From an uncultured Bacilli bacterium (GTDB lineage Bacteria > Bacillota_I > Bacilli_A > RF39 > UBA660): DNA of 64,000 nt. The translations under genes and the position numbers were made by a program. Location of the stretch: NCBI GenBank assembly GCA_934096035.1, contig CAKOKX010000001.1:694989-758988 (forward strand), in the 5' to 3' direction. The notes below the pieces were generated by a model, which was not told the DNA's origin, searched no databases, and saw only the letters and a list, made by a program, of their open reading frames with translations. This document shows, piece by piece, positions 19,882 to 46,972 of the stretch. Positions within the stretch are counted from its first letter, which is position 1. The number at the start of each line of letters is the position of its first letter.

Positions 19882-19887
19882 TTAAAG

Positions 19888-19926
19888 TCCCCTACTTAAG
19901 ATAAGTCATAAGATAGGGGACTTTTC
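19888..19926 (+). terminator. rho-independent terminator
   Basis: AAGTCCCCTA...TAGGGGACTTTT. Confidence 0.55.
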
Positions 19927-20646
19927 ATATATACATACACGCATATATCCTTATTTATAATAAATATAAGGTTATAAACGCGCAATATTAACCTTATTAA
20001 AATATAAATAAGGTTATAAAATACTTTTTTAAATTTTAAAACTTATTATAAAAAATAATTTTGTTTTTGTTATAAAAATAATTTTATGTTATATTTATGA
20101 TTAATTATATTTATTGAGTAAAGAAAAGTTATTTAAAAAGATAAGAACGATTTGAAAAATATAATATAATTTTAATTAAAAATCAAGAATTTAATATACA
20201 AAATAATATATATTATGTTAACTTAGTCATTGAAAAAATACAAATATAATTTGTTGATTTTGTATCGCTATTTGTATTTATATTAATAACATTAATCTTT
20301 TCTTTCTTTGAAAATTTATTCATAAGTAACTTAACAATATTTATAAACAATTTAATCATAATAAACATCAAATTATAAATATTTATCTTTTATATATGAA
20401 ATATCTTTCCCAATCTGTTCTAATATTTTTCTTTGTTTCTTAAGTTCATTATATGTTAAAATTGGCAAAATAGATTTTATAATTGTAACTAATATTATTA
20501 TTACTCCGATTATAATTATATAATTTGCAATTACTTCATAATCAATATTTAGTCCCATAAAAACACATCCTTACTTTTTGTAGTTTAACACAGACAAGAT
20601 TAAATGTAAATACTCTCCCCCACTCTTTTTGATGTGTCAACACATT

Positions 20647-22979: not shown

Positions 22980-23876
22980 TTAGATATGCGCATGAGGATG
23001 ATTACTATAATCTTCCTCTATTTTTTTATTTTGTAAATGAGAATATATTTCCGTTGTTTCTAAATTTTCATGACCTAAAAGTTCTTGAATAACCCTTAAA
23101 TCTGCTCCATTATTAAGAAGATTCGTAGCAAATGAATGTCTTAATGTATGAGGACTTATTTCCTTTTTTATACCAGCTTTATTAGCTAAATCTTTTAATA
23201 TCTTAAAGAACCCTTGCCTACTTATTTTTGTTCCATTCTTGTTTAAAAAAACATAATCACAAGTAATATTTTTTACTAAGAATGCCCTATAATTATTTAC
23301 ATATAGCTTTAAAGCTTCTAAAGCAGTATTACCTATAGGAATAATTCTATCTTTTTTTCCCTTGCCTGTAACTCTAATTATACATTCTTCAAAGTTTATT
23401 TGTTTTAACTCTAATGAAGTAATTTCACTAATTCTAGCTCCAGTTGCATAAATTATTTCTAGCATTGCTTTATTTCTATAATCAATTGGTTTAGTAAGTC
23501 TAATATTAAATAATTTATCTATTTCTTCACTTGTTAAATAATTTGGCAACTTTTTTTCTAACTTCGGAGCTTTTATTCCGTCACAGGGATTATTTTCTAT
23601 TTTATCCATAAATACCAAATACTTATAAAAGGAATTAAATACTGTTAAATAATGAGCTTTTGTTCTTGGGGTAGAATCTATATCATCTAAAAACTTTTTT
23701 ATATCATTTTTCTTTAGTTTAATTAAATTTTTATTTACACTATTACTTAAAAGAAGTAAGTTTTCTCCATAAGAATCAATCGTATTTAAAGATACTCTTC
23801 TTTCATACTTTAAATATTCTAAATAATCTATTATATCTGGATCTTTAATACTATCAATAATATTTCTCATAAACAA
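22980..23876 (-). CDS. tyrosine site-specific recombinase of the XerC/XerD type
   Basis: An N-terminal SAM-like domain; a catalytic RHxxR...LGHxxxxTTEIY motif ending in Tyr. Confidence 0.8.
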   Translation of the reverse strand: MFMRNIIDSIKDPDIIDYLEYLKYERRVSLNTIDSYGENLLLLSNSVNKNLIKLKKNDIKKFLDDIDSTPRTKAHYLTVFNSFYKYLVFMDKIENNPCDGIKAPKLEKKLPNYLTSEEIDKLFNIRLTKPIDYRNKAMLEIIYATGARISEITSLELKQINFEECIIRVTGKGKKDRIIPIGNTALEALKLYVNNYRAFLVKNITCDYVFLNKNGTKISRQGFFKILKDLANKAGIKKEISPHTLRHSFATNLLNNGADLRVIQELLGHENLETTEIYSHLQNKKIEEDYSNHPHAHI

Positions 23877-27013: not shown

Positions 27014-27811
27014 CTAATTATTTTTTAAATTATTTAGTATAGTTGTGTCAACATCTTCAATATCATTGAAATTTTCCATTGCTAATTTAACATTATAAAC
27101 CCAGGTAGGTTTAGCTATTTTTACTCCAGATTCATTAAACATTGGATTATATATTCTTCCTATATCTTCCACTGTTGTAAGACCCTTTCCAAAATAACCT
27201 TCACTTAATAGTTTTATATATTGAAGTGTACCATATTCAATATTTTTATAACCTATTAAGTTACCATTATACATACCACCAAATATATTGTTTTTATTTA
27301 ACATATATTTAGATACATAACCAGATTCAACATTTGCAATACCAGCAGCAATAGTAAATTCTACATTATCATAAATATTACTAAAATATTTAACTAATCT
27401 TACAATGTAATTTTTATCTTTATTACCATTTGTTCTTACATTATTAAATGATGTTTTCTCACTAGTTTCTAACTCAAATAAATAATTAATTACAATTTTA
27501 TCAAAATCATCAATATTTTCAACAAAACCTAATTCCTTATAGTTTTCTTTTAATTTATTAGTTAAAACATCTTCATCGATTTGGAAAGTTTCTGCTAAAA
27601 ACTTAATAGAATCTTTCTTTTCTTTTAATGTCATGCTAACTTGATCTTCATAAGATAATTTATTTAAGCTCTCCAGGGGAACACCATTTTCTACATCGTT
27701 TTCTACTTCAAGATGTATTGTGCCACTTGGTTGTAATAATATTATTACTCCAACTAACACCCCAATAATAATAAATATTTTATTCTTATTGGTTTTTATA
27801 TAATTTATCAT
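27014..27811 (-). CDS. membrane-anchored protein with a glucosaminidase (peptidoglycan hydrolase, FlgJ/LytD-type) domain
   Basis: An N-terminal transmembrane helix, then YIVRLVKYFSNIYDNVEFTIAAGIANVESGY...NNIFGG, which matches the N-acetylglucosaminidase domain. Its own TTGCAT-17-TATAAT promoter lies at 27846..27874 on the minus strand. Confidence 0.55.
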   Translation of the reverse strand: MINYIKTNKNKIFIIIGVLVGVIILLQPSGTIHLEVENDVENGVPLESLNKLSYEDQVSMTLKEKKDSIKFLAETFQIDEDVLTNKLKENYKELGFVENIDDFDKIVINYLFELETSEKTSFNNVRTNGNKDKNYIVRLVKYFSNIYDNVEFTIAAGIANVESGYVSKYMLNKNNIFGGMYNGNLIGYKNIEYGTLQYIKLLSEGYFGKGLTTVEDIGRIYNPMFNESGVKIAKPTWVYNVKLAMENFNDIEDVDTTILNNLKNN

Positions 27812-27901
27812 AATTTTAAATACTCTCCTTTAACAGTACATACTAATTATAACATATTTTCCTTAAAAATGCAAATTTCACTGTCGAAAAGCCATAGTTA
27901 T

Positions 27902-27935
27902 AAACAAATAAGAAGTATTATTTTAAATACTTCTT
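27902..27935 (-). terminator. rho-independent terminator of the HerA-like gene
   Basis: On the minus strand: AAGAAGTAT-loop-ATACTTCTT followed by ATTTGTTT. Confidence 0.5.
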
Positions 27936-27946
27936 ACTATATTATA

Positions 27947-29728
27947 TTAAATAAATTCTTCAACATTTCCTTCTGGCATTTCCATCTTCCAACAATTAGA
28001 TACATCACAATTACTACTATAAGGCATTGGATTAGGCATTTGCATCTTAACAATCATAGGTATTTTAAATGCTCCTCCAAAACATACACAAGTACCAGGT
28101 TGTAATACTTTTTGTTTATCAAGTATATCTTGACTAATATTTGGAAGCATTTCGCCAATATATTTAATATCCAAAGGATGTGTCATTTTAAATATTAAAA
28201 AGTTATTACATTGTGCTATAACAGTATCACTTATTTCAACAGGTCTTTGACTAATAATATCAAGTATAACCCCATATTTTCTACCTTCTTTAGCTATTCT
28301 ATCAAATATATTATATCCAAGTAAGAATGTATCGTTATCTTTTTGAATATATCTATGGGCTTCTTCTAAGAATAAATGAAATGGCATTGAGGCTCTCTTA
28401 GCACTACCTTTAGCAAAGTCAAATATAATTCTTGAAAAAATCTTAACAAATACCTTAGCATATATATCATCTACATCTTCTAAGTTAATATTTATAATTT
28501 GAGCTTTCTTTCCATCATTATCAATTAATGATTTAATATAATCTTCCACAGGCATAAATTCATTTGAAAAATACTCCCCTAGTTTACTATTAATGATTGT
28601 ATTAAGTCTAACTCTTAAAATAACTGCATCATCATGTAGATTTTGATTATGTAAAAAGCCTTCACTAATTAAAGTAAATTCCATTGCTTTAGCAAAATCT
28701 TTCAATGAATAACTAGCATTATCTGGAGCCTTAATACTATCTAAATTATCATTTATCTTACTTAATATATAATTAGTAATTAAAACTGATTCACCAAAAT
28801 TACCATTTGAATCAATTTCAAAACATTCACTAAAAGTTCTAGTATAACCCAGTCCAGGGATAACTGTATCAAAATTAAACTCTTTAGTATTACATACTTC
28901 TATAATAGTAAATATTTCATTTTTTTTACTTGATATAGTTTCATTACTAAATAATACTGCCAGTAAGGCTTTAGCAATTAAATGATTCTTATAATCATTT
29001 GCTTCATCAGTATTCGTAGAAAATATTTTTGCCAGCTTAATAGTATTTTCTATAATTGGTAATTGTGCATGATTACTTGCTTGAAGTAATAATGCCATAT
29101 CATCCAAAGTTAATAAACTAACTGGTATTTTAAGTAATTTATCACTTTCTTCATGAGGATTACTTGTAATAAATTTATATGAATAGTTACTATTTATTTC
29201 ATTTAGTTTACCAAAGGCATTTTTATATTCTCCAAATGCATCAAATATAAAGATATTAGCATTATATTGTACTTGATATATTGATGAAAATAAATTTTGG
29301 ACAATTCTAGCAACTCCACAGGATTTCCCAGATCCACTATTACCAAATATAGCTAAATGATTAGAAAATAAGCTATTAATACTTGGATGTATATTAAATC
29401 CTTTATATATAGCACTTTCCCCAAGAATAAAACTACTTGCATTATATGTTCCAACTAATTCTGTTAATTCATCTTTAGTAATCATTCTAATTTTAGATGA
29501 CAACAATGGTTTTCTTAAAACCCCGTTTATATACTTTCCATTTATATATTCTCCAAGAAATCTTATTTTTATAATATCACTATTTAATTCTTGAACTTCA
29601 CCAAGTATTCTTTGATTATTATCTTCAAATACAACATTTACATTCATTAAATCTGCTGTATTAGCATCTTTAATTAAATTTTCAACGTGAGCTTCAGACT
29701 CTCCAATATATATAATTTTCCCAAACAT
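27947..29728 (-). CDS. HerA-like (DUF87) P-loop ATPase
   Basis: An N-terminal barrel-like domain (MFGKIIYIGESEAHV...); Walker A motif GNSGSGKS; Walker B motif FLEEAHRY; EGRKYGVILDIISQRP, which is typical of HerA/FtsK-clade ATPases. Confidence 0.6.
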   Translation of the reverse strand: MFGKIIYIGESEAHVENLIKDANTADLMNVNVVFEDNNQRILGEVQELNSDIIKIRFLGEYINGKYINGVLRKPLLSSKIRMITKDELTELVGTYNASSFILGESAIYKGFNIHPSINSLFSNHLAIFGNSGSGKSCGVARIVQNLFSSIYQVQYNANIFIFDAFGEYKNAFGKLNEINSNYSYKFITSNPHEESDKLLKIPVSLLTLDDMALLLQASNHAQLPIIENTIKLAKIFSTNTDEANDYKNHLIAKALLAVLFSNETISSKKNEIFTIIEVCNTKEFNFDTVIPGLGYTRTFSECFEIDSNGNFGESVLITNYILSKINDNLDSIKAPDNASYSLKDFAKAMEFTLISEGFLHNQNLHDDAVILRVRLNTIINSKLGEYFSNEFMPVEDYIKSLIDNDGKKAQIININLEDVDDIYAKVFVKIFSRIIFDFAKGSAKRASMPFHLFLEEAHRYIQKDNDTFLLGYNIFDRIAKEGRKYGVILDIISQRPVEISDTVIAQCNNFLIFKMTHPLDIKYIGEMLPNISQDILDKQKVLQPGTCVCFGGAFKIPMIVKMQMPNPMPYSSNCDVSNCWKMEMPEGNVEEFI

Positions 29729-29951
29729 ATATCACACATCCCTTTAGTATATTAAAATTATATCACGATAAAGAAAAAAGTAAAAGATTTTTTATCATTT
29801 ACATAATAATACAGTAACAATAAACAATTTTTAAATATAAATTTAATTGTTTCAATATAAACATTTTATTTATTATAGTAATTACTTCTCCTATACACTA
29901 TCACTATTCTTTAATTCACAATTAATATTCAAATTGAAAAAACATATAGAA

Positions 29952-29986
29952 TCAAAATAAGACAAGCAATTAATCTAGCTTGTCTT
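29952..29986 (-). terminator. terminator of the gatCAB array; it overlaps the last codons of gatB
   Basis: On the minus strand: AAGACAAGC-loop-GCTTGTCTT followed by ATTTTG. Confidence 0.45.
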
Positions 29987-33702: not shown

Positions 33703-35079
33703 CTAAAATTCACATGAACCAGGTGTTCTTGGATAAGGAATAACATCACGAATATTTTCAATGCCTGTTAGATACATAATAAGTCTTTCAAATCCCATTC
33801 CAAATCCTGAATGAATGCATCCACCATATCTTCTTAGATTTACATACCATTCAATGCTTTCTTCTTCTACACCTAATTCTTTCATTCTAGCCAGTAAAAC
33901 ATCTAATTTTTCTTCTCTTTGTGATCCACCAATAAGTTCACCAGCTCCTGGTACTTCTAAATCAACACCAGCAACAGTTTTTCCATCTTCATTTAATTTC
34001 ATGTAATATGCTTTAATTCCTGCTGGCCAATTTTTAATAAATACTGGAACACTAAAATGATTTGTTAACCATCTTTCATGTTCTTTAGCAATATCTTCTT
34101 CATAAGATGGTTCAAATTCCCATTTTTCACCACTATTTTTTAATAAATCAATTGCTTCTTTATGATCAATTCTTATAAAAGTACTATTTGCTACATTTTC
34201 TAATTTTGCTTTTAATCCTTTTTCTACAAATTTATCAAAGAAATCAATTTCATCTGGACAATTTTCTAAAACATATTTAACAATATATTTTAGGAAATCT
34301 TCTTCAATATCCATTAAATCATTGATATCTGCAAAAGCTATTTCAGGTTCAATCATCCAGAATTCATTTGCATGAGTCTTAGTATTTGAATTTTCTGTTC
34401 TAAAAGTTGGCCCAAAAGTATAAATCTTACTAAATGCTAAAGCAAATGTTTCGCCATGAAGTTGTCCTGAACCAGTAATAAATGTCTTTTTATTAAATAA
34501 ATCTTTACTAAAGTCTACTTTCCCATCTTTTTTTGGTAGATTATCAAAATCAAATGTAGATACTTTAAACATTTGATCACTACCTTCACAATCTGCAGTT
34601 GTTAAAAGTGGTGTATGAACATAAATATAATTTCTATCTTGGAAATATTTATGAATGGCATAAGCTGCTACACTTCTTACTCTAAATACTGCTTGAAAAG
34701 TGTTAGCTCTAGGTCTTAAATATGCAATACTTCTTAAAAATTCCATACTATGTTTTTTAGGTTGTAATGGATAATCTTCAGAGCAATCTCCCAACAATTT
34801 AATACTTTTAGCTTTTAATTCATAATCTTGTCCACTGCCTTCAGATTTAACAAAATTCCCGATAACCTCAATACTTGAACCATCATGTAATTTTACAAGA
34901 TTACTAAAATCTTCTAATTCATTTGTATATACTACTTGTAAGTGTTTAAAACTAGTTCCATCTGAAAAATCAATAAAACCAAATTCCTTTTGAGGTCTAT
35001 GATTTCTAATCCAACCACTTATCTTAATTTCCTTATCTAAATATTCTTCACTACTCTTTTGTAATTCTTTAATTGTCAT
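33703..35079 (-). CDS. asnS: asparaginyl-tRNA synthetase
   Basis: A class IIb aaRS with an N-terminal OB fold, motif 2 FRTENS..THANEF, and motif 3 GFGMGFERL; 458 aa. Confidence 0.9.
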   Translation of the reverse strand: MTIKELQKSSEEYLDKEIKISGWIRNHRPQKEFGFIDFSDGTSFKHLQVVYTNELEDFSNLVKLHDGSSIEVIGNFVKSEGSGQDYELKAKSIKLLGDCSEDYPLQPKKHSMEFLRSIAYLRPRANTFQAVFRVRSVAAYAIHKYFQDRNYIYVHTPLLTTADCEGSDQMFKVSTFDFDNLPKKDGKVDFSKDLFNKKTFITGSGQLHGETFALAFSKIYTFGPTFRTENSNTKTHANEFWMIEPEIAFADINDLMDIEEDFLKYIVKYVLENCPDEIDFFDKFVEKGLKAKLENVANSTFIRIDHKEAIDLLKNSGEKWEFEPSYEEDIAKEHERWLTNHFSVPVFIKNWPAGIKAYYMKLNEDGKTVAGVDLEVPGAGELIGGSQREEKLDVLLARMKELGVEEESIEWYVNLRRYGGCIHSGFGMGFERLIMYLTGIENIRDVIPYPRTPGSCEF

Positions 35080-36127
35080 TTTTCTTCCTTCTTTCTCTTT
35101 TTAAATGAGTATTTAAACTCTTAATGAAATCATTTTTATTATAAGCATCTTTAAAATATATTTTTAAATTTATGCTAACTAAAATATATTGTTTCATAAG
35201 TTCTTCAAATTCAAATTCACTACCACGCAAAGCTAAATTAATAGTTCTTTCAATATTAATACCTAATACATGCATTGCCATTATTGCATCAAGAAAATCT
35301 TCAGAATGATTTGTAATAAATGCTGTAACTATTTTATATTCTTCTTGTTCACTAGTAAATTCACTAACATTACTCCACCACTCTAATAATAAATGTCCTG
35401 TTTTACTAATATTCTCTTTAGAATTTAACCATTCATTTACAGTCTTTTCTTCTTCATAGCTATAAAAATTATTTTCAATATCACTATGATCTTTATCAAT
35501 ATTGCTTTCAATACTTAATATAAAATCATTTCTTAATGCTTGATATTTATCTTTATATAATAATTTTAAATTTCTAGAAATAACTAATATTTTATCTACT
35601 TCTTTTTCCAAACAATTTTTCTTTATTGCTTCATCTATTATTTCTTTTATATTTTTTTCTTGCCAATTGCATATAAATATTGCTTCAAAAACATCATCTG
35701 GTCTTTTGCAAATTAAATTGCTTAATATTTGATATTCATTTGAATCTTTAGAATATGTATTAGAATTTGCTAATAACTTTAATAATAAATTTTCTAAATA
35801 ACTATGCTTAACATGTTCATTTTCATGTTTATTTTTATTTACATTTTCACTTAAGAACTTTTCTTCTAATAAATTACCATATCTAGTAGAAAAATTATCA
35901 GCTTTATTCTTTAAATAATTCATATTATCTACAAATCTATTGCCTATAGCATAATTTATAATAACTTTACTATTATACCCTAAAGAATATAAATAAGAAG
36001 TAATTTTTAAAGCATCATCAAGTTTTTCTTTTACAAACCTTGTAATTTTACACTTTGCTTTATAAGTATATACTTCTTCACTACTATAAAGTATCCAATT
36101 TAATACTATTTCTTCAATATAACCCAT
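35069..36127 (-). CDS. hypothetical protein (352 aa); it overlaps the asnS start
   Basis: A long ORF. I see a weak resemblance of the N-terminal region to DnaD/DnaB-type helical domains but cannot confirm it. Confidence 0.45.
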   Translation of the reverse strand: MGYIEEIVLNWILYSSEEVYTYKAKCKITRFVKEKLDDALKITSYLYSLGYNSKVIINYAIGNRFVDNMNYLKNKADNFSTRYGNLLEEKFLSENVNKNKHENEHVKHSYLENLLLKLLANSNTYSKDSNEYQILSNLICKRPDDVFEAIFICNWQEKNIKEIIDEAIKKNCLEKEVDKILVISRNLKLLYKDKYQALRNDFILSIESNIDKDHSDIENNFYSYEEEKTVNEWLNSKENISKTGHLLLEWWSNVSEFTSEQEEYKIVTAFITNHSEDFLDAIMAMHVLGINIERTINLALRGSEFEFEELMKQYILVSINLKIYFKDAYNKNDFIKSLNTHLKRERRKKNDN

Positions 36128-36136
36128 AGTTCCTCC

Positions 36137-36862
36137 TTATATATTACCTAAGATATATTCAAGCACATCAGCTTCATCTATTTTTATTACTTCTTCAGTA
36201 TAATTATCTTTAATACTAATTATACCTTTAATTAAATTTTCATCATCTAACAATATATTAAATTTACTATTAACTTTTTCATTTAACACAACATTAATAT
36301 TATTCATTCTTAAATCCTGTGCTATTTTTAAAGCATGATAACTTTCTTCTTCACTAATACCAATTATACTTACATCAATATTTACATCTAAAGCATTATC
36401 CCTAATAATGTTCATTACTTCATTAATTAATGTCTCAATATTAATTTTAATATTAATTTCATTATTATTTTTACATCCAACACCCATAATTACATCTTCA
36501 TAAATATAATTCCAAGTTAATTCATTACTTTCAATATTATTTACACAATATATTTCCAACACTTCTAATAAGTTTAATATTTCATCATTACAACTAATAC
36601 TTAATTCTATATCCTCTAATCCAAATCTTTTAAATAAATTGTATCCTAAACTTATTGCTTCAACATCACTAACTAAATCATCCGAATTTTTTACATGAAT
36701 TTCAATATCTTCTAAATTATTAGTATAATATTTATTACTATCTGACTTTCCTATAACAAATACATAATTATAATTATCCATATGTTGATTCAAAATTTCT
36801 ATTAAATAATTATACAGCCTTGTTTTCTTTCCACTCAATGTCATATTTATCAGTCCTTTCAA
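36137..36862 (-). CDS. stand-alone fragment resembling the C-terminal part of HisRS, including its anticodon-binding domain
   Basis: DVSIIGISEEESYHALKIAQDLR...INVVLNE...KFNILLDDENLIKGIISIKD aligns with the HisRS anticodon-binding domain pattern D-YIV-G-ea---al-la-LR-aGi---d---k--kqfk-A----a-ailGe-E. The N-terminal catalytic core is absent. Confidence 0.5.
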   Translation of the reverse strand: MKGLINMTLSGKKTRLYNYLIEILNQHMDNYNYVFVIGKSDSNKYYTNNLEDIEIHVKNSDDLVSDVEAISLGYNLFKRFGLEDIELSISCNDEILNLLEVLEIYCVNNIESNELTWNYIYEDVIMGVGCKNNNEINIKINIETLINEVMNIIRDNALDVNIDVSIIGISEEESYHALKIAQDLRMNNINVVLNEKVNSKFNILLDDENLIKGIISIKDNYTEEVIKIDEADVLEYILGNI

Positions 36863-36883
36863 TTACTCTTTATTTTACCATAT

Positions 36884-36910
36884 TTAAAAAGGAAATAGAA
36901 TACTATTTCC
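36884..36910 (-). terminator. terminator separating the aspS unit from the HisRS-like gene
   Basis: GGAAATA-GAATAC-TATTTCC with A and T runs on either side. Confidence 0.45.
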
Positions 36911-36954
36911 CAAATTTTTACAAAACTTTATTGGTAAACAAAAAGAAAGCATCA

Positions 36955-37677
36955 TTACTTTCCTTCATTTGTTTTTAGCCAAAGCATAAAATCATCTAAT
37001 AAATCATATTTAGTATCTTTATAATTGTCATACACATATTTTAAAATATCAACTACATTAGCATCTAAAACATCCAATTTTACAACTCTGATATCCTTAG
37101 TCATAACATATCTTCTTCTAAATGTACTCATATTCCACGATTCCATTACTTTACTATCAAAATCACTATAATCACCATATATTTTTTTCATAATTAAATA
37201 ATCTGTAGAATCTTTATCTAAATTATATTTTACTTTTACCTCATCATATTCATCTTTATTATAATCACATGCATTAGAAACATTAATAACTAAGTATGTA
37301 CATTCTAACATATCGTGATAATATTTAGTAAATACAGTATTTTTCTTATATTCGTCATTTTTATACTCATTACTTAAAAATTCTTTAGTCCACTCATACA
37401 TTTTAGTTTTAAATACATCATCATCATATTTTTTTCTTAAGTTTTTTTCTCCATATGTATTATTCATCATCCATTTAAGATAGACATCATGATATTTTAA
37501 CATACCATTTACACCCGTCGAAAAATAAAGTCTTCTAGAACTATCAACCATCGCCAAACTAGCACTAATCTCTGGAGTTAAGTTATTTTTTTCAATACGA
37601 GCTAAATCAATTGTTTTCGTAAAATGAAAATATGCTCTATCAAAATCTAAATCACACAAATTTACCCTTCTTAACAT
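36955..37677 (-). CDS. hypothetical protein (240 aa), translationally coupled to aspS
   Basis: The start lies 8 nt after the aspS stop, with a weak AGGA ribosome-binding site inside the aspS 3' end. The next terminator is downstream of this ORF. Confidence 0.5.
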   Translation of the reverse strand: MLRRVNLCDLDFDRAYFHFTKTIDLARIEKNNLTPEISASLAMVDSSRRLYFSTGVNGMLKYHDVYLKWMMNNTYGEKNLRKKYDDDVFKTKMYEWTKEFLSNEYKNDEYKKNTVFTKYYHDMLECTYLVINVSNACDYNKDEYDEVKVKYNLDKDSTDYLIMKKIYGDYSDFDSKVMESWNMSTFRRRYVMTKDIRVVKLDVLDANVVDILKYVYDNYKDTKYDLLDDFMLWLKTNEGK

Positions 37678-39662: not shown

Positions 39663-39691
39663 AATATACTACTTTTTTCATCATTTGTCTA
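39663..39691 (-). promoter_or_regulatory. candidate promoter for the T-box leader
   Basis: On the minus strand: TAGACA, a 17-nt spacer, then TATATT. The -35 element overlaps the stop codon of the upstream J-domain gene. Confidence 0.35.
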
Positions 39692-41161
39692 GATATTTTC
39701 TTTATTTTTCTCTCTTTTTAATATATTATTTTCATTATTTTTAAACTTTATTTCTTTTTTGCTTTTTAAGAAACTATTATAAAATCTATCATATAACGCT
39801 TGCTTATCTTTATATGTTCTACTAGCGGTATCCGTTGCATGAGTATTTAACGAATGAAATTCATCAAAATTCACTAGTAATATTTTATCATTTTCTGTTA
39901 AAAGAATATAACAACCAGTATTTTCATAATAATATAATGCTGTAGTTATAAATTTTGTATTTAAATATTGAATATAACCTTTGTCTCCTAAGAAATTCAA
40001 ATCTTTTAAAACATCTTTAAAATTATTATATTTTTTATAAAACTCTTCTTTAGTCATAAAAACTTCTTCTGCCATACCAGATGGGAACTTCTTTAAAAAG
40101 GATACAAGATTTCCTACTTCACCCTTTTTCAAAACAATCTCAGTTTCTTCATTATCAGAAAAATTGGCTGTAATATATAATTCATATTCACTTTCTTTAA
40201 GTTCATCACTATTTGTAAAAGTTAAATTACCAAGAATACCCAAAACTTTTTCATCGATTCTACCCAATTGAATGGCTTTTAATTTAGTCATAGCTCTATT
40301 AAATACATTCATAGCGATATCAATATCTTCTGTATCTGTTGGTTTTAACTTCATCATTCTTTTATTAAAGTTGTTCATTATTGCTTTATAAGTATCCCAC
40401 ATTTTATTATTTAATTCTTCATCTTTTAAAATTCTTACCTTTATTTCAGTTTGTAATCTATATATACCATCCTCTATTGTAATTTTTTCATCAACAATTT
40501 CTTTAAGTATTATTTCTTTTAAATCAGCAATTTCTTCTAATATTTTACTATTAACTTTTTTATCCTTAAACATGGATAATATAATTTTATCTAAATTTTT
40601 ATCAACTTTTTCATATTTTGTTCTAATTTTATTTACTTCATTTACATAAGCATCAAAAGAACAATTATCATTAATTGGTTCAAACTTGCTTATCCAAAAT
40701 TCAGGTACATTTTTTAATATTTCATTTTTATAACTTTTAAATAAATCTTTTATACTACCTATAGCAACATTATATTTAAAATCTACATGTAGTTTTTCTT
40801 TAGAGAAAGAAAATGCTTTAACAACATCCTCAATTGCCTTTGCATATTTGTATTCAGGTGTATCTGGTAAATAAACTGTTTTACTAACATAAAAATCTAA
40901 TTTCCGTCTTAAATTATTATAATACATTAAGAATTCATCATAATTTTCTTGTTTATTTTGCGTTCTACGACTTTTTGTTACTTCATATGAACCACCTTTT
41001 TTTAACACTTCATATGCATAATTAACTTTCTTCATCATCTCTTCATCACCATTTAAATCTGGATGGTATTTTTTAGATAATTCCAAGTATCTTTTCTTTA
41101 ATTCTTCTTTTGTAAAATTACTTGTAAATCCAAATAACTTTAATGCTTCACTATAATTCAC
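39689..41161 (-). CDS. J-domain protein (490 aa) with a large uncharacterised C-terminal region
   Basis: The first 60 residues read like a DnaJ J-domain (LSKKYHPDLNGDEEMMKKVNYAYEVL, with the HPD tripeptide). I recognise nothing in the remainder. Confidence 0.6.
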   Translation of the reverse strand: MNYSEALKLFGFTSNFTKEELKKRYLELSKKYHPDLNGDEEMMKKVNYAYEVLKKGGSYEVTKSRRTQNKQENYDEFLMYYNNLRRKLDFYVSKTVYLPDTPEYKYAKAIEDVVKAFSFSKEKLHVDFKYNVAIGSIKDLFKSYKNEILKNVPEFWISKFEPINDNCSFDAYVNEVNKIRTKYEKVDKNLDKIILSMFKDKKVNSKILEEIADLKEIILKEIVDEKITIEDGIYRLQTEIKVRILKDEELNNKMWDTYKAIMNNFNKRMMKLKPTDTEDIDIAMNVFNRAMTKLKAIQLGRIDEKVLGILGNLTFTNSDELKESEYELYITANFSDNEETEIVLKKGEVGNLVSFLKKFPSGMAEEVFMTKEEFYKKYNNFKDVLKDLNFLGDKGYIQYLNTKFITTALYYYENTGCYILLTENDKILLVNFDEFHSLNTHATDTASRTYKDKQALYDRFYNSFLKSKKEIKFKNNENNILKREKNKENI

Positions 41162-41175
41162 GATTTATCCTCCAT

Positions 41176-42486
41176 TTAAATTTTTTCTCTTTTTAAAACA
41201 ACATTTTTATTACTTTTATTAATTGCTCTTTTAGCATCAAGATAATCTACAGCTTTATTAATTATACTTATTTCACTAGAATTTTGCAAATCTTCATCTA
41301 AAGGCATTCCAATCATACTAGCAAATTCTAATAAATATTTTTTATCAATTTTTCCTGAAGTTAACAAATCATATAAACTAATATAATTTCTAATAAATGT
41401 TGATCTATGAAATTCAAATGTTTCTTCTCCAAATGGTGTAAAACCTGTACAATAAAGTTTACTATTAGCATAACCTGTTTTAAGTAAGATATTTTCACCA
41501 TCATATTTTTCTTTTATTTTAACAAAAACATTTTTCGTTTTAGATTGAACTATGTCATATATTTCTTCAATATTTTCAAACTTAATACTTGTAAGAGTTC
41601 TTAAAATATCTCTACTTTCTTGACCTTTTAATACTCTTTTTAATATTTCCTTTATCATTTCAAGCATTTTATTGGCAACATCTATTTTACTTAAATCATT
41701 TTTACCTAATGAATTTATTCTAGTATTATAATTTTCTTTAATTAAAGCTAAACTAGAAAAAACGTCACTTTTTCTTGATTGGAATTTTTCTAAAGATAAA
41801 TTCATACCAAAAACTAATGAATCTAAATATGCATAACGTCCTTCCCAAAGAGCTAGATTAATATTGTTTAGAAAAATTATTAATGAATCTGGTGCACAAT
41901 CTCCGATTATATTTTCTAATTTTAAAACTGTTTCACAATATACTTGATGTTTATTTATCATAGTAGATAATTCTTTTAACATTCTTCTTATTTCATCTAT
42001 ATTTTTATTAAAATCTATAGAACTATCAATTTCAATTAATTTACGTTTTATTTCATCAATAAAATTAATTATTACTAAATTTTTTTCTTTTCCTTCAGTT
42101 AATTCTTGTATTCTTTTTTCTGTTTTAAATACTAAACGTCTATTTCTAACATAAACTTTTATTATTTCATGCACTTGATCAACAAATGTATCAAAATTAC
42201 AATCAAAATTTAAATCAATATGTGCCGTTATTTTATGGCTTGCAAATATTTCATTAGCATATTCTTTGAACTTTATTTTTAAATTATTTATTAAAATGCT
42301 ATATTCTTCCTCTAATTTTTTTTGATCTTCATAAAAATCAAAACTATCAATTAATCTATTAATAGATGTAGCATATTTTTCTTCTAGGGAATCACTTAAA
42401 TATTTTCTACTACCCCTTATTTTAATTAGTTTGTTTACTAAACATTCGTAATATTTATATAACGTAAATCTTTCATTATCACTCAT
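41176..42486 (-). CDS. hypothetical protein (436 aa)
   Basis: A 14-nt gap separates it from the neighbouring gene in the same operon. I see no motifs. Confidence 0.5.
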   Translation of the reverse strand: MSDNERFTLYKYYECLVNKLIKIRGSRKYLSDSLEEKYATSINRLIDSFDFYEDQKKLEEEYSILINNLKIKFKEYANEIFASHKITAHIDLNFDCNFDTFVDQVHEIIKVYVRNRRLVFKTEKRIQELTEGKEKNLVIINFIDEIKRKLIEIDSSIDFNKNIDEIRRMLKELSTMINKHQVYCETVLKLENIIGDCAPDSLIIFLNNINLALWEGRYAYLDSLVFGMNLSLEKFQSRKSDVFSSLALIKENYNTRINSLGKNDLSKIDVANKMLEMIKEILKRVLKGQESRDILRTLTSIKFENIEEIYDIVQSKTKNVFVKIKEKYDGENILLKTGYANSKLYCTGFTPFGEETFEFHRSTFIRNYISLYDLLTSGKIDKKYLLEFASMIGMPLDEDLQNSSEISIINKAVDYLDAKRAINKSNKNVVLKREKI

Positions 42487-42498
42487 AACTTTTCTCCT

Positions 42499-43938
42499 TT
42501 ACTTAACTTTCTTTCTTGTAACTGATGTTTCAATCACTAAATTTCCGTCTAAAACCATTTTATTTCTAGCATCATCATTTTTCATTAGTTCTTTTAATTC
42601 TTCAATATACTTTTTATTTAAATGATATCTATTTATATCTAAGTTAAAACCTTCATTTATGGAATGCACTCCAATAATTAGATATGTATCATATGCTATT
42701 TTACAAAAACTAATTGATAAATTAGAACCATTTATAAATAGTAATTCACCAGCTTTTAAGTTTCCATCTAAAACTGTACGATGATTATTACCACTTTTAA
42801 CTTTTTCAAGTAATAAATCTATTTTACTTTTTAAACTATTATCAATATTATCTAAATCTTCTTTAAAATAGCAATTACCTTTAATATCACTTAAGAAAAC
42901 AACTTCTGGCTTTCTAATCCTTTTATCTATATGAAACATATTTAATAATATTTTTAATTTATTAATGGCGTCATTTATTATTTCATCAAAATACTCTCTA
43001 TCTTCATCATTATATAATTCTTCAAGGCTTTGAATATCTAATAAAGCTTCCATATAATAATCATAATCACTTCTGCCAACAAGAGAACTTATAAGGGTAC
43101 ATGCCATAAGATAAATTTCTTTATCTTCATCAGTTAAAAAACTTAATTTTTCTGTTTCTACTATAACTGGTTCAAGAGTTTCTTTCATTACTTCTGGCTT
43201 TTTTTCTTTTTTTATTTCAAGTTTTACTTCTGCTTTTACAATATTATTTAAATATTCTTCATAACTACTTCTTAATTCAATCATTAATTTGTTAGATAAA
43301 GAAGTATACTTTATTAATTTTAATTCATCATTATTTATAGCAAGTTCTTTTAGTCTTGTAGCTTTACTTAATTGATTAAATAAAATCATTAGTAATTCAC
43401 TATCTCCCCCATTTTGAAAATTACCATAAATATCAAAATAATTACTTAGTGATTTTAAACTTTCAAAATCGCATTTCCATAAATCTTCGGGAGTTTTATT
43501 TTCACCATTTTTCTTACTTTTAAAGGAAATGGCACTACCAAAAATTTTAATAGCTTCTTTGTTTGTTAGGTAATTTTTACAAATTATTGATATTAGTGTT
43601 ACATAAAATAGTGGAAAGTCTTCAATTGCACCGATAGCTTTTTCATTATCAAAAGCTCTAATTTGACTATCACACGTATAAATATGTGTACTTAATATTT
43701 CAATATGTTCTTTTAATACTACTTTAGCACTTTTAATATCATATTTTGTTAAATCACCAAGAGCTTCTTTTAACATATTTGTTAATTCATTTGATTTAGT
43801 GTCTTTTAGCATTTCAACATACTTTTGAAAATCTAATGGCCAAAGTTCTAACATATTTACAATATTTTTATAACCTTGCAAATCACTAATCATATTACTT
43901 TTAACATTTTTCATATATTTTTTAAATTTAACAAACAT
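42499..43938 (-). CDS. hypothetical protein (479 aa)
   Basis: A strong AAGGGGGA ribosome-binding site and a TTGTAA-17-TGgTAAGAT promoter at 43968..43996 on the minus strand. The C-terminal 60 aa are weakly RelE/YoeB-like. Confidence 0.5.
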   Translation of the reverse strand: MFVKFKKYMKNVKSNMISDLQGYKNIVNMLELWPLDFQKYVEMLKDTKSNELTNMLKEALGDLTKYDIKSAKVVLKEHIEILSTHIYTCDSQIRAFDNEKAIGAIEDFPLFYVTLISIICKNYLTNKEAIKIFGSAISFKSKKNGENKTPEDLWKCDFESLKSLSNYFDIYGNFQNGGDSELLMILFNQLSKATRLKELAINNDELKLIKYTSLSNKLMIELRSSYEEYLNNIVKAEVKLEIKKEKKPEVMKETLEPVIVETEKLSFLTDEDKEIYLMACTLISSLVGRSDYDYYMEALLDIQSLEELYNDEDREYFDEIINDAINKLKILLNMFHIDKRIRKPEVVFLSDIKGNCYFKEDLDNIDNSLKSKIDLLLEKVKSGNNHRTVLDGNLKAGELLFINGSNLSISFCKIAYDTYLIIGVHSINEGFNLDINRYHLNKKYIEELKELMKNDDARNKMVLDGNLVIETSVTRKKVK

Positions 43939-44003
43939 ATATATCCCCCTTAAACAAGTGTTTTTCTATCTTACCACAAAATGCCCAATTTTACAAGAAA
44001 ATA

Positions 44004-44032
44004 TTGACTTCTATTATTAATTATCATATAAT
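44004..44032 (+). promoter_or_regulatory. consensus sigma-A promoter for the large plus-strand gene
   Basis: TTGACT, exactly 17 nt of spacer, then TATAAT. Confidence 0.55.
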
Positions 44033-44059
44033 AAAAACCACTTTAGGATGGGGGTACTT

Positions 44060-46972
44060 ATGGGAATATTTTCTATTTTTTTCAAAAAATCTAAATTAAA
44101 CCAAGAGGTTTTATGTCTTGTAAGTTTACAAGATAGTATTGTTATGCCTCCGAATAGTTTTTTTGAAAGCAATAAAAATAAAGAACTTTGTGAACAATAT
44201 TATCAAGAATATAAAAGTATTTTATCTTCTAAAAAAACAATATTAAGTATTCACTTAAAAGATACAGAAACAGATGATATCAGGGTTTATATTGATATAT
44301 TAACAAGTTTAGAATTACATATTCATGATATTTTAAGTAATACAAATAGCAAAGGATATAACTATGAATATGTAACCAATTTACTTGCAAGACTTAATGG
44401 TTATGCTCACATTTTAAAGGCCATCGAAGAAGAATCTTTCTTAAGAATGGCAGCATTATCAAATTTAAAATCTATTCCATTTTTATCTAATAACAAAAAG
44501 AATGCTATAGATAATGAAATATCTAGATTACAAATTCAAATATTTAATGATCAGAAAGATATTGAATTAATAAATTTACAAACTAACTCATGTTTATCAA
44601 TAATAGAAAATTTAAATTTAGAAAAAGATCCTAAATATTATAATGAATTACGTGTAAGACTCATTGGTTATATTTCTGAATTTATACCTGATTCATTAAA
44701 AGAATATGTACAAAATTATCAAAACAAAAATTATCTTACGTTAATGCAAATAAAATTAGAAGTATTACTTTTTAAAAATAAAAATATATTAAAAGATTTA
44801 GAAAATGAATTTGATAATCTTTTAGAATTTACACATTTAGATAGAACTACAAGAATACATTCTATAAATAGATTAATTATAAAATATATGGCAATCAAAG
44901 AATATAAAAGAATTGAAGATAAAGAACTTCTTTATAAACTCGTAGAATTTAAAGTAAATTCTTACGAAATAGATTATGGTAACCATAGAGAAATTTTACA
45001 TGATTGTGCAAGGTCTAAAGAAGAAAAAGAAATAATGAAAGAGGTATTCTTTAAAAAAGTAAGTACATTTATGCAAAGTAATTGTGTTTTTGAAGAATAT
45101 AAAAGATTTGATTTTTCAAAAAGAGATTATAGAATATTAGCTAATTTAATAAATAATGCTGTAAAAAATAAACATGGTGTTTTTGATTATGGTAGAATAT
45201 TATGTTCTCCAGAACTAACAATGTTATTATTTTCTATTAATAATCCTTATAAAATGAAAGATTTCTTTAAAAACTTTCAAGTAAGTGATTGTACATATCT
45301 TGCTGTTACATCTTTAAGAAGAAATATGTTTGATTTTGAAGAATATATTCCACTTGAAACCGTAATGCGATTAACCGTAGTGTTTTTAAAAAATCCTCAT
45401 CATAAAGAAAAGATTTTAGAAGATAAAGAACTTTATGATTTATATAAGATTTATGATTGCTTATTATATTCTGTAATAAAGCCCAAATCCCCATCTCACG
45501 TTTTTGAAAATGTTTCAAAAATTACAATTACCGATCAAAAAATTTTATTTTATCCAGAATTAATAAAAATTTATAACAAAGAAATGGCGCAAGGAAGAAA
45601 GTTAGTATTTCCTAAATCATTAAAAAAACTAACTATTAGAGTAGATAACTATGATAGAGAATTTTTAAAATTTTACGAATTTGAACTAAATGAAGGGCTT
45701 GAATATTTATCTATTTTAGAAACACCTACCTATGCAACACCACCAAAAGTATTAGAGTTACCTTCTACTCTTGAACACTGTGAGATAACTATAAGGCCAG
45801 AAACTATAAGATTTAGAGATTATACAAATTCACAATTATTAGTAAGCGAAATAAGATTTAAAAATTTTTTGAAAAATTTAATGCATGCCCAAAGATTATT
45901 AACACCCAATGAATTACCACTAATTAAAACTATTGAATTCAAAGGAAAATCATCTATTACAACTTTTAGTCTTAATATTAGAAAACTTGTATTTGGTCGT
46001 AAATTTGACTGTGAAACAATATATAATGATTTTCAAAATAAAGTAAAAGAAATGTATGAAAAACTATATGAAATAGTTCAGGCATTTGAGTTAGAAATTC
46101 CTAAAGAAGAAGCAAATTTTGATAATTTAAAAAAACTAGAAGATGAATTATATAATTATGTACAATCAGAATACAAAGAAATAACAAGTTTTGATATAAT
46201 GATGGAAACAGATATACTTGCAGCAAAATATGATAAATATACAAGAGATGCAGAAGCAGACAAAGATAAACTATTAAAAGAAATGAATAATAAAATTTTA
46301 AAATTAAGATATATTATTGAAACTTTATCAATTTACACAAATACTGAAGATGCAATTGAAGATTTTAAATCACTTTTAACAATAAAGTTTAAATTATTAA
46401 TTAGTATTCTTCCTGAGTCAAGTAAACCACTTATTGATGAAAATACTCCAAAAGATGAAACGGAATTATTTAAAGATTTATTAATTGATTATTTGAAGAA
46501 TTTTGTAATTTATATTTATAAAGATAAAGAATTATCAAAAAAAATAGAAGAAATAATTGAAAAACATCGTGGAGACTATAGTTATTTTGAATACTTATTA
46601 AGAAATCCATTTTTATTAAAGTTAAAATTGTCAATTGAAGACCCTAATTATCATGATACTATATTGGATGTGTTTAAAAAACATAAAGTAAAAACACCTA
46701 AAGAAATAATTGATAAGGTGAAAAACAAAAATCAAGAAAATTGTATTTCTTATCTTCAATTGATGGAAATTATTATAAAAAATGAAAATAGCTCTACTCC
46801 ATCAAAAAGTAATTTTACTTTTAATGCCTATCTTGATGATTTATCTCTTATATATAAATCTGCTAAATCTAAGCTATATAATCATAATTTTGTAATTAAC
46901 TATGAGTCTGAGGAATGCAAAAACCTTGAACTTGATGCTAGTGAAAACCCAAAACTAATTAGGAAAAAATAA
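44060..46972 (+). CDS. large hypothetical protein of about 970 aa (the ORF track starts at 44048; I prefer 44060)
   Basis: An AGGATGGGGG ribosome-binding site 6-8 nt before the second ATG. No P-loop, polymerase or nuclease motifs. The central segment around LKKLTIRV...LEHCEITI is weakly reminiscent of leucine-rich repeats. Confidence 0.5.
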   Translation: MGIFSIFFKKSKLNQEVLCLVSLQDSIVMPPNSFFESNKNKELCEQYYQEYKSILSSKKTILSIHLKDTETDDIRVYIDILTSLELHIHDILSNTNSKGYNYEYVTNLLARLNGYAHILKAIEEESFLRMAALSNLKSIPFLSNNKKNAIDNEISRLQIQIFNDQKDIELINLQTNSCLSIIENLNLEKDPKYYNELRVRLIGYISEFIPDSLKEYVQNYQNKNYLTLMQIKLEVLLFKNKNILKDLENEFDNLLEFTHLDRTTRIHSINRLIIKYMAIKEYKRIEDKELLYKLVEFKVNSYEIDYGNHREILHDCARSKEEKEIMKEVFFKKVSTFMQSNCVFEEYKRFDFSKRDYRILANLINNAVKNKHGVFDYGRILCSPELTMLLFSINNPYKMKDFFKNFQVSDCTYLAVTSLRRNMFDFEEYIPLETVMRLTVVFLKNPHHKEKILEDKELYDLYKIYDCLLYSVIKPKSPSHVFENVSKITITDQKILFYPELIKIYNKEMAQGRKLVFPKSLKKLTIRVDNYDREFLKFYEFELNEGLEYLSILETPTYATPPKVLELPSTLEHCEITIRPETIRFRDYTNSQLLVSEIRFKNFLKNLMHAQRLLTPNELPLIKTIEFKGKSSITTFSLNIRKLVFGRKFDCETIYNDFQNKVKEMYEKLYEIVQAFELEIPKEEANFDNLKKLEDELYNYVQSEYKEITSFDIMMETDILAAKYDKYTRDAEADKDKLLKEMNNKILKLRYIIETLSIYTNTEDAIEDFKSLLTIKFKLLISILPESSKPLIDENTPKDETELFKDLLIDYLKNFVIYIYKDKELSKKIEEIIEKHRGDYSYFEYLLRNPFLLKLKLSIEDPNYHDTILDVFKKHKVKTPKEIIDKVKNKNQENCISYLQLMEIIIKNENSSTPSKSNFTFNAYLDDLSLIYKSAKSKLYNHNFVINYESEECKNLELDASENPKLIRKK

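Follow-up and report, generated by a model that had tools for sequence, protein, structure and literature searches.

A stand-alone HerA-type ATPase at a conserved housekeeping locus of AT-rich uncultured gut Bacilli

In the published work examined, bacterial HerA is treated as a motor that needs a docked effector (NurA, SIR2 or DUF4297). In the characterised systems the N-terminal barrel of HerA is the docking platform for all three. Deletion of residues 1-35 of Staphylococcus aureus HerA (SaHerA) results in the loss of Sir2 binding (PMC11514289), and DUF4297 contacts the HAS domain of HerA (PMC11291478). Here we analysed a HerA-like gene in a 64,000-nt stretch of DNA from an uncultured Bacilli bacterium (contig CAKOKX010000001.1, positions 694,989 to 758,988; the whole stretch is referred to as the window, and positions are counted from its first letter). 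The original prediction had described the gene as a monocistronic HerA-like ATPase with no visible partner, and regarded such a solitary copy of a defence-type gene as odd. We found that the motor stands alone through a whole radiation: the solitude of HerA is a property of an entire clade and not an accident of one genome, and this clade is confined to very AT-rich uncultured gut Bacilli and is under very strong purifying selection. It is therefore highly likely that we are dealing with a functional, stand-alone, core-type HerA clade.

The window has a base composition of ~25% GC, and the gene and the parts of its 593-amino-acid (aa) product are located as follows:

27947..29728, minus strand: HerA open reading frame (ORF), 593 aa plus stop codon, ATG start.
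29483..29728, minus strand: predicted N-terminal beta-barrel (HAS-like), aa 1-82, from the strands in the AlphaFold2 (AF2) model.
29321..29344, minus strand: Walker A motif GNSGSGKS, aa 129-136, from the sequence by motif scan.
28355..28372, minus strand: Walker B/catalytic Glu motif FLEEAH, aa 453-458, from the sequence by motif scan.
28241..28288, minus strand: EGRKYGVILDIISQRP (EGRKYG motif region), aa 481-496, the most conserved stretch.
27950..27988, minus strand: short variable C-terminal tail KMEMPEGNVEEFI, aa 581-593, which follows the conserved ...SSNCDVSNCW end.

The sole Pfam domain in the protein is the DUF87/HerA central domain (PF01935; E 8.6e-19, 68.9 bits against a cutoff of 23.2), and the PADLOC HerA models match it strongly, with PDLC04102 the best of them (E 5.5e-106). 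Its NCBIfam matches are to HerA-type models only, all far under the equivalog cutoffs, and its sequence matches in the PDB are HerAs exclusively. FtsK_SpoIIIE (E<=0.01), type IV secretion system (T4SS) and other secretion families of Pfam gave no match; the relatives P0123 and P0125 have precomputed FtsK_SpoIIIE matches described as faint. When the translation was read by eye, no hydrophobic N-terminal segment was seen. In a 40-sequence alignment G129, G134 and K135 of Walker A are invariant, as are A457 of the FLEEAH motif (E456 and H458 being nearly so) and K484 and G486 of EGRKYGVILDIISQRP, a stretch conserved at 0.97-0.98 over 80 orthologues and assumed, by analogy with other HerAs, to hold the arginine finger. 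The AF2 model built from a 40-sequence alignment (predicted local distance difference test score, pLDDT, 88.2; predicted template modelling score, pTM, 0.85) shows an N-terminal beta-barrel, a RecA-like core and a long helical insert. The top Foldseek matches in the PDB are all HerA, with a probability of 1.00 to many HerA chains: those of HerA-DUF4297 (9c1m/8xau/8ziq), of Sir2-HerA (8yhx/8wld/8j4u/8sub), of Sulfolobus (4d2i) and of Thermococcus HerA-NurA (9x1m). The protein thus has the architecture of the HerA branch (barrel, RecA-like core, helical bundle insert and C-terminal brace), with a barrel shorter than usual. We concluded that it is a genuine, intact member of the HerA branch of the FtsK-HerA ATPases; the N-terminal barrel, the two Walker motifs and the EGRKYGVILDIISQRP stretch that had been recognised in the original prediction were all confirmed, and the best folds matched by the structure prediction that it had recommended were all HerAs.

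The C-terminal tail is the variable part of the protein, with a pLDDT below 50 at aa 590-593. Tail length is 0-75 aa among the 80 orthologues and ~250-360 aa in P0121, P0122 and P0126, which are distant relatives. Beyond ...SSNCDVSxCW the tails are of low complexity and rich in S, T, N and P, and many finish with a short acidic or hydrophobic tip (EEFI, EYFA, EHFI, PEIIAA or SNFA), which could be a tethering peptide. On the opposite strand a 78-aa ORF (27869-28105, plus strand) overlaps the 3' end of HerA and its terminator; similar ORFs occur in a few related loci, and constraint on the sense strand probably accounts for it.

Among described systems we compared the HerAs of Sir2-HerA (Nezha) from S. 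aureus (SaHerA, 8yho/8yhx), E. coli (8j4u, 8sub) and Paenibacillus (8wiv/8wld) together with the Listeria and Enterococcus plasmid copies. They share with the window HerA the beta-barrel, RecA-like core and helical bundle as well as the catalytic motifs, at 32-38% identity over ~90% of the length and template modelling scores (TM-scores) of up to 0.74-0.78, and they are its nearest neighbours in the tree described below. Unlike these proteins, the window HerA has no SIR2 gene, its barrel is 15-45 aa shorter, its scores against the NCBIfam anti-phage equivalogs are far under the cutoffs (154 bits against 800 for HerA_antiphage; 166 against 850 for HerA_antiphage_2), and it occupies a fixed housekeeping locus with core-gene-like constraint instead of a mobile or defence-island context. 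The HerA of HerA-DUF4297 is its best PDB sequence match (E 4e-43) and top Foldseek match, and the alignment is good over the conserved C-terminal half, where it takes in the EGRKYG...SQRP stretch and runs to 'NP.P' near the C-terminal end; however, the window gene has no DUF4297 or PD-(D/E)xK neighbour, identity is ~24%, and the two proteins lie on separate branches of the tree. With the HerA-NurA end-resection helicases (Sulfolobus 4d2i, Thermococcus 9x1m and Deinococcus) it shares the HerA fold and the predicted character of a hexameric double-stranded DNA (dsDNA) translocase, but its flanking genes show no NurA, Mre11 or Rad50 linkage, identity is 15-19%, and the double-strand break (DSB) repair equivalogs are far from being reached (83 bits against 970 for helicase_HerA; 122 against 800 for HerA_Thermprot).

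An orthologue scan with one genome per species gave 80 loci with HerAs 66-99% identical to that of the window, all in gut bacteria that are uncultured, probably belong to GTDB order RF39 and bear the labels 'Tenericutes', 'Bacilli', CAG:460, CAG:472, Ca. Onthocola or Ca. Ventrenecus. The recurring gene order is gatC-gatA-gatB-HerA-(265-aa gene)-tcdA / gpsA / rarA / xerD. HerA is better conserved than tcdA, gpsA and xerD in every locus compared (56/56, 57/57 and 50/50), than gatB in 35 of 37, than gatA in 33 of 34 and than RarA in 42 of 58, so that RarA alone in this block rivals it in conservation; the conservation spans the entire protein, the helical insert included. Against the three closest genomes the ratio of nonsynonymous to synonymous substitution rates (dN/dS) of HerA is 0.024, 0.042 and 0.076, below gatB (0.079-0.094) and far below the downstream 265-aa gene (0.17-0.26). 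Given the fixed locus, the high conservation and the low dN/dS, this is the mark of a constrained core gene and not of a defence-island gene. The idea of an odd solitary copy of a defence-type gene was not supported: the 80 loci are syntenic, conservation is core-like and the relatives are solitary too. A survey of orthologue neighbourhoods for a recurring partner, which had been suggested as a check, revealed a conserved housekeeping context instead.

To examine the wider family, we searched 1.84 billion cluster representatives exhaustively with HMMER and obtained 4222 matches at E<=1e-3 but no more than 219 at E<=1e-30. Near full-length relatives are 38-53% identical, align from residue 1 and are solitary in housekeeping DNA, in these contexts:

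P0127: asnS-PP2C-HerA-sepF-divIVA...ileS.
P0124: HerA-sepF-divIVA.
P0122: ftsY-x-ylxM-HerA-ffh.
P0129: rpmH-rnpA-yidC-jag / HerA-dnaA-dnaN.
P0131: ParA-like-HerA.
P0125: RmuC-HerA.
P0128: alone beside ltaS.

A metagenome scan added 80 further loci. About 85 more distant relatives, ~32-45% identical to the lead sequence of the alignment (P0129), are again solitary in housekeeping operons, and all loci of the stand-alone type lie in DNA of 23-32% GC. The recurrent neighbours, confirmed by Pfam, are sepF/divIVA (~17 loci), ylxM/ffh/ftsY (~15, with a ylxM-HerA gap of 2-14 bp in eight of them), sufCDS (~8) and yqeG/yqeH (4); RmuC lies directly upstream of HerA, with a 43-bp gap, on three contigs of one sub-lineage. 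SIR2 genes that overlap HerA were confined to five outgroup loci (L095, L174-176 and L178), where they occupy position -1, and to the Listeria and Enterococcus plasmids, and the gap between the genes in true Sir2-HerA loci is -14 to +1 bp. P0133, which is 38% identical and has a longer N-terminus, lies in a methylase/helicase island, where a SIR2_2 gene overlaps it, and the best plasmid matches (Listeria and Enterococcus, 32-34% identity) are likewise SIR2 and HerA pairs. We considered a mobile-element origin and rejected it: every plasmid match is a Sir2-HerA pair and falls short of 35% identity, and the viral-contig relatives are 23-29% identical among the matches listed. In P0126, P0131 and P0138 (loci L094 and L097) the Walker B motif is degenerate, with LLIDNAH, IILEKAD and AIIESAE instead of hhhEEAH; judging from these motifs, some clade members may lack activity or serve as regulatory ATPases.

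Neighbour-joining on 84 full-length HerAs (100 bootstraps, root not established) placed the stand-alone HerAs in one clade in all 100 bootstraps, and this clade joins the Firmicute SIR2-associated HerAs in 96. Each genomic context maps to one sub-lineage of the stand-alone clade. Since the contexts follow the HerA tree, the pattern fits vertical inheritance with occasional relocation, and since there is one context per sub-lineage, each context counts as a single event. Neighbourhood was accordingly set aside as a functional clue (sepF/divIVA, ftsY-ylxM-ffh, sufCDS, yqeGH, RmuC, the dnaA-origin and the ParA-like gene), each being found on a single branch. Two HerAs that group with the SIR2-associated clade, those of L098 (P0134) and L168, have no SIR2 gene in the short contigs available, and effector loss may have happened more than once.

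The Walker A motif lies at aa 127-134 in 21 of the 22 stand-alone sequences tested, the exception being P0124 (aa 296), which carries a disordered N-terminal extension of ~165 aa. It is found at aa 148-173 in SIR2-type HerAs, with a median of 172 elsewhere. This earlier position shows the N-terminal barrel of the stand-alone clade to be shorter by 15-45 aa.

No partner was detected. tblastn with seven SIR2 partners of true Sir2-HerA loci gave no match in the window or in any of the 80 orthologous loci. There was no Pfam match to NurA at E<=1 in the flanking genes and the 10 unannotated window ORFs, and no match to PADLOC models among the same 10 ORFs. No DUF4297 or PD-(D/E)xK nuclease adjoins HerA in the window or in ~165 related loci, and no NurA-like or recurrent nuclease does so in ~170 loci. 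The immediate neighbours in the window are gatB and a 265-aa membrane-anchored protein, in agreement with the original prediction that no nuclease, SIR2 or other effector adjoins the gene. In most of the 80 loci an ORF stops 2-60 bp ahead of HerA, but these ORFs belong to at least eight unrelated families: a 150-aa membrane-anchored protein (32 loci), ~430-aa cadherin-like repeat proteins (16), serpin-like proteins (8), Fic-like proteins and others. Among the families characterised there is no recognisable effector, nuclease or NADase; several are without annotation. The first of them is a protein of 140-187 aa with an N-terminal membrane anchor that precedes HerA by 1-216 bp (mostly <100 bp; for example L007:7484-7945); it has no Pfam match; the window contains neither the gene nor a remnant of it, and L001-L003 and the distant sub-lineages lack it as well. 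In one sub-lineage (L063:6817-7992, L064, L069 and related loci) the ORF directly upstream is 391 aa long and serpin-like by eye. The upstream ORF was rejected as a conserved partner, the families being unrelated and the 150-aa protein having left no remnant in the window. The downstream wall-hydrolase-like gene was also rejected; it is present in 35 of the 80 loci, in the nearer sub-clade only, and is sometimes parted from HerA by insertions. Neither side of HerA has a conserved neighbour across the 80 loci.

The signals around the gene and its downstream neighbour are listed here:

27898..27938, minus strand: intrinsic-terminator-like hairpin and U-rich tract 3' of the HerA stop, from RNA folding.
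29959..29986, minus strand: hairpin terminator closing the gatCAB operon, free energy (dG) -12.2 kcal/mol, z -3.13, from RNA folding.
29757..29784, minus strand: promoter-like TTTACT-16-(TG)TATAAT upstream of HerA, weak, from the consensus scan.
27875..27846: promoter-like hexamers upstream of the downstream 265-aa gene, weak, from the consensus scan.
27014..27811, minus strand: downstream 265-aa N-terminally anchored protein, weakly cell-wall-hydrolase-like, from a profile match; context only.

The HerA terminator has a perfect 13-bp stem at 27907..27938 with a 6-nt loop, followed by UUUGUUUAU (dG -15.4 kcal/mol, z -3.27), and was overlooked by the consensus scan because of its AT-rich stem. 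The original prediction had placed it at 27902..27935, and both this terminator and the separate transcription of HerA were upheld: with terminators on both sides and flanking gaps of 241 and 135 bp, the gene is very probably monocistronic. As to its further claim of a promoter for the downstream gene, the hexamers are present, but the window contains 37 promoter-like sites against 42 expected from shuffled AT-rich sequence, so such sites carry little weight as evidence. The glucosaminidase domain ascribed to that gene is more weakly supported than the original prediction had suggested. A profile of 14 orthologues weakly matches a phage cell-wall hydrolase (PDB 8yxk, E 9e-4), but the protein has no Pfam match, even at E<=1.

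FtsK, SpoIIIE and SftA belong to the same superfamily as the window HerA. Bacillus subtilis SftA is a soluble, division-associated translocase and offers a functional analogy for a stand-alone HerA. The window HerA is not a member of the FtsK/SpoIIIE group: it has no FtsK_SpoIIIE Pfam match, no gamma domain (which binds KOPS/XerD) and no membrane anchor. It does lie in a conserved block with xerD and near a dif-like site, a proximity seen in this sub-lineage only. The sign of the GC skew changes at ~19.5-20.5 kb, where gene orientation converges, and a dif-like 28-mer, ATACAAAATAATATATATTATGTTAACT, is found at 20196-20223 (plus strand) inside the convergent intergenic gap 19882-20646, with 0.04 expected by chance. 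The skew change, the convergence of the genes and the dif-like site together indicate that the window contains the replication terminus. The site occurs in the same orientation in 21 of the 80 orthologous loci and in L122, and is absent from loci of other sub-lineages; its distance to HerA is 7.7 kb and to xerD (22980-23876) 2.8 kb. The closeness of HerA to dif is suggestive of an FtsK-like role, with the association confined to a single lineage.

What the motor does can be put forward with less assurance than its membership of a core-type clade. That the stand-alone HerA is a chromosomal DNA translocase is a possibility that we hold tentatively. The combined proposal, of an effector-less, vertically inherited core HerA acting as a DNA translocase in chromosome maintenance, stands at about even chances. 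By homology with other HerAs, the subunits would assemble into a ring, probably a hexamer, in which Walker A and Walker B, together with an arginine acting in trans, would bind ATP at the subunit interfaces; ATP hydrolysis would draw dsDNA through the central pore. Because the barrel is shortened and no effector gene accompanies HerA, we propose that the motor would work on the cell's own chromosome, either in its segregation or clearance or in DNA handling of a repair type, rather than as an abortive-infection sensor or motor. Several points weigh against this proposal. The substrate and the cellular role are argued by analogy. The window also encodes AddA/AddB, RecD2, RarA and XerD, and with AddA/AddB and RecD2 already there an end-resection role is not obviously needed. 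The degenerate Walker B motifs of P0126, P0131 and P0138 mean that some members of the clade need not be active motors. The sepF/divIVA, ylxM/ffh, suf, yqeGH and terminus contexts are one event each, which makes guilt by association weak. The tree is neighbour-joining only and unrooted, so that 'derived from defence HerA' and 'sister to' it look the same, and the partner search covers the 64-kb window, so a partner could be encoded elsewhere in the genome.

Among the alternatives, the one that survives best, although we consider it unlikely, is a DNA-repair motor acting in trans with an unlinked nuclease (NurA-like, RmuC, AddAB or another) as a counterpart of archaeal HerA-NurA resection. HerA-NurA is the founding function of the family according to two papers (PMC9960219, PMC12977600), RmuC lies directly upstream on the three contigs mentioned above, and rarA and xerD are in the conserved block. 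The adjacency to RmuC is confined to a single sub-lineage, however, no NurA-like protein was found beside HerA in the ~170 loci, the DSB-repair equivalogs are far under cutoff, the barrel that binds NurA is shortened, and AddAB is present in the window.

A more specific scenario, and a quite unlikely one, is that a defence-type HerA, a sister of the Sir2-HerA ATPases, was domesticated at the base of the radiation of AT-rich, small-genome gut Bacilli and became an indispensable chromosome-handling translocase. The effector and part of the docking barrel would have been lost. What remained would be a soluble pump of the FtsK/SftA kind that serves segregation or the processing of the terminus and is perhaps tethered by the variable disordered C-terminal tail.

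It is improbable that HerA is a non-DNA motor with a protein or envelope-related substrate, like the VirB4/EssC branches, perhaps tied to membrane targeting or division. Such a role would suit its position within the ftsY-ylxM-ffh operon in one large sub-lineage, with the short gaps in eight loci, its position ahead of sepF-divIVA in another sub-lineage, and the wall-hydrolase-like gene that follows it in the window. Each of these contexts is one evolutionary event, however; there are no transmembrane segments or secretion-system neighbours, no match was obtained to FtsK_SpoIIIE, T4SS or other secretion families of Pfam, and all close structural relatives are dsDNA translocases.

We regard as very improbable that HerA is the ATPase of an anti-phage system of the Sir2-HerA or DUF4297-HerA type with a lost or distal effector. 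Among characterised proteins it is closest, in sequence and in fold, to defence HerAs, and the clade is sister to the SIR2-associated HerAs. Defence genes are typically patchy and fast-evolving, whereas this gene holds a fixed position in 80 genomes with conservation above gatA and gatB and dN/dS of 0.02-0.08. Moreover, the anti-phage equivalogs are far under cutoff, there is no SIR2 in the window or the 80 loci while real Sir2-HerA genes overlap, the effector-docking barrel is shortened, and none of the 10 unannotated window ORFs has a PADLOC match. A decaying pseudogene or mis-called ORF, for which the absence of a partner and nothing further speaks, is refuted by the conservation data (a full-length intact ORF in ~165 loci, intact catalytic motifs and dN/dS of 0.02-0.08) and has practically no chance of being correct.

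Two other parts of the window drew our attention. Between asnS and aspS (35069-37677) there are three unannotated ORFs of 352, 241 and 240 aa, whose conservation in related loci is poor (31-86% identity); that of 241 aa has a weak HGTP_anticodon match (E 0.003) and may be a truncated synthetase-like protein. Four large ORFs occupy 39689-46972. The first encodes 490 aa with an N-terminal DnaJ domain only, and the following ones, of 436, 479 and 974 aa, have no Pfam or PADLOC match.

No description of a stand-alone housekeeping HerA clade was found in the published HerA literature that we searched, and its clade-wide solitude and extreme conservation would be surprising to a specialist. Defence-system finders that score isolated HerA matches, such as the strong PDLC04102 match obtained here, should not count the stand-alone clade as immunity genes. 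If the role in chromosome maintenance is true, this HerA would take the place of a missing DNA pump, or be an alternative one, in a group of gut bacteria that is large, uncultured, of medical relevance and reduced in genome size. It would also be a clean case of exchange between immune and housekeeping machinery, which under domestication would mean that an immune ATPase was turned into a core cell-cycle component.

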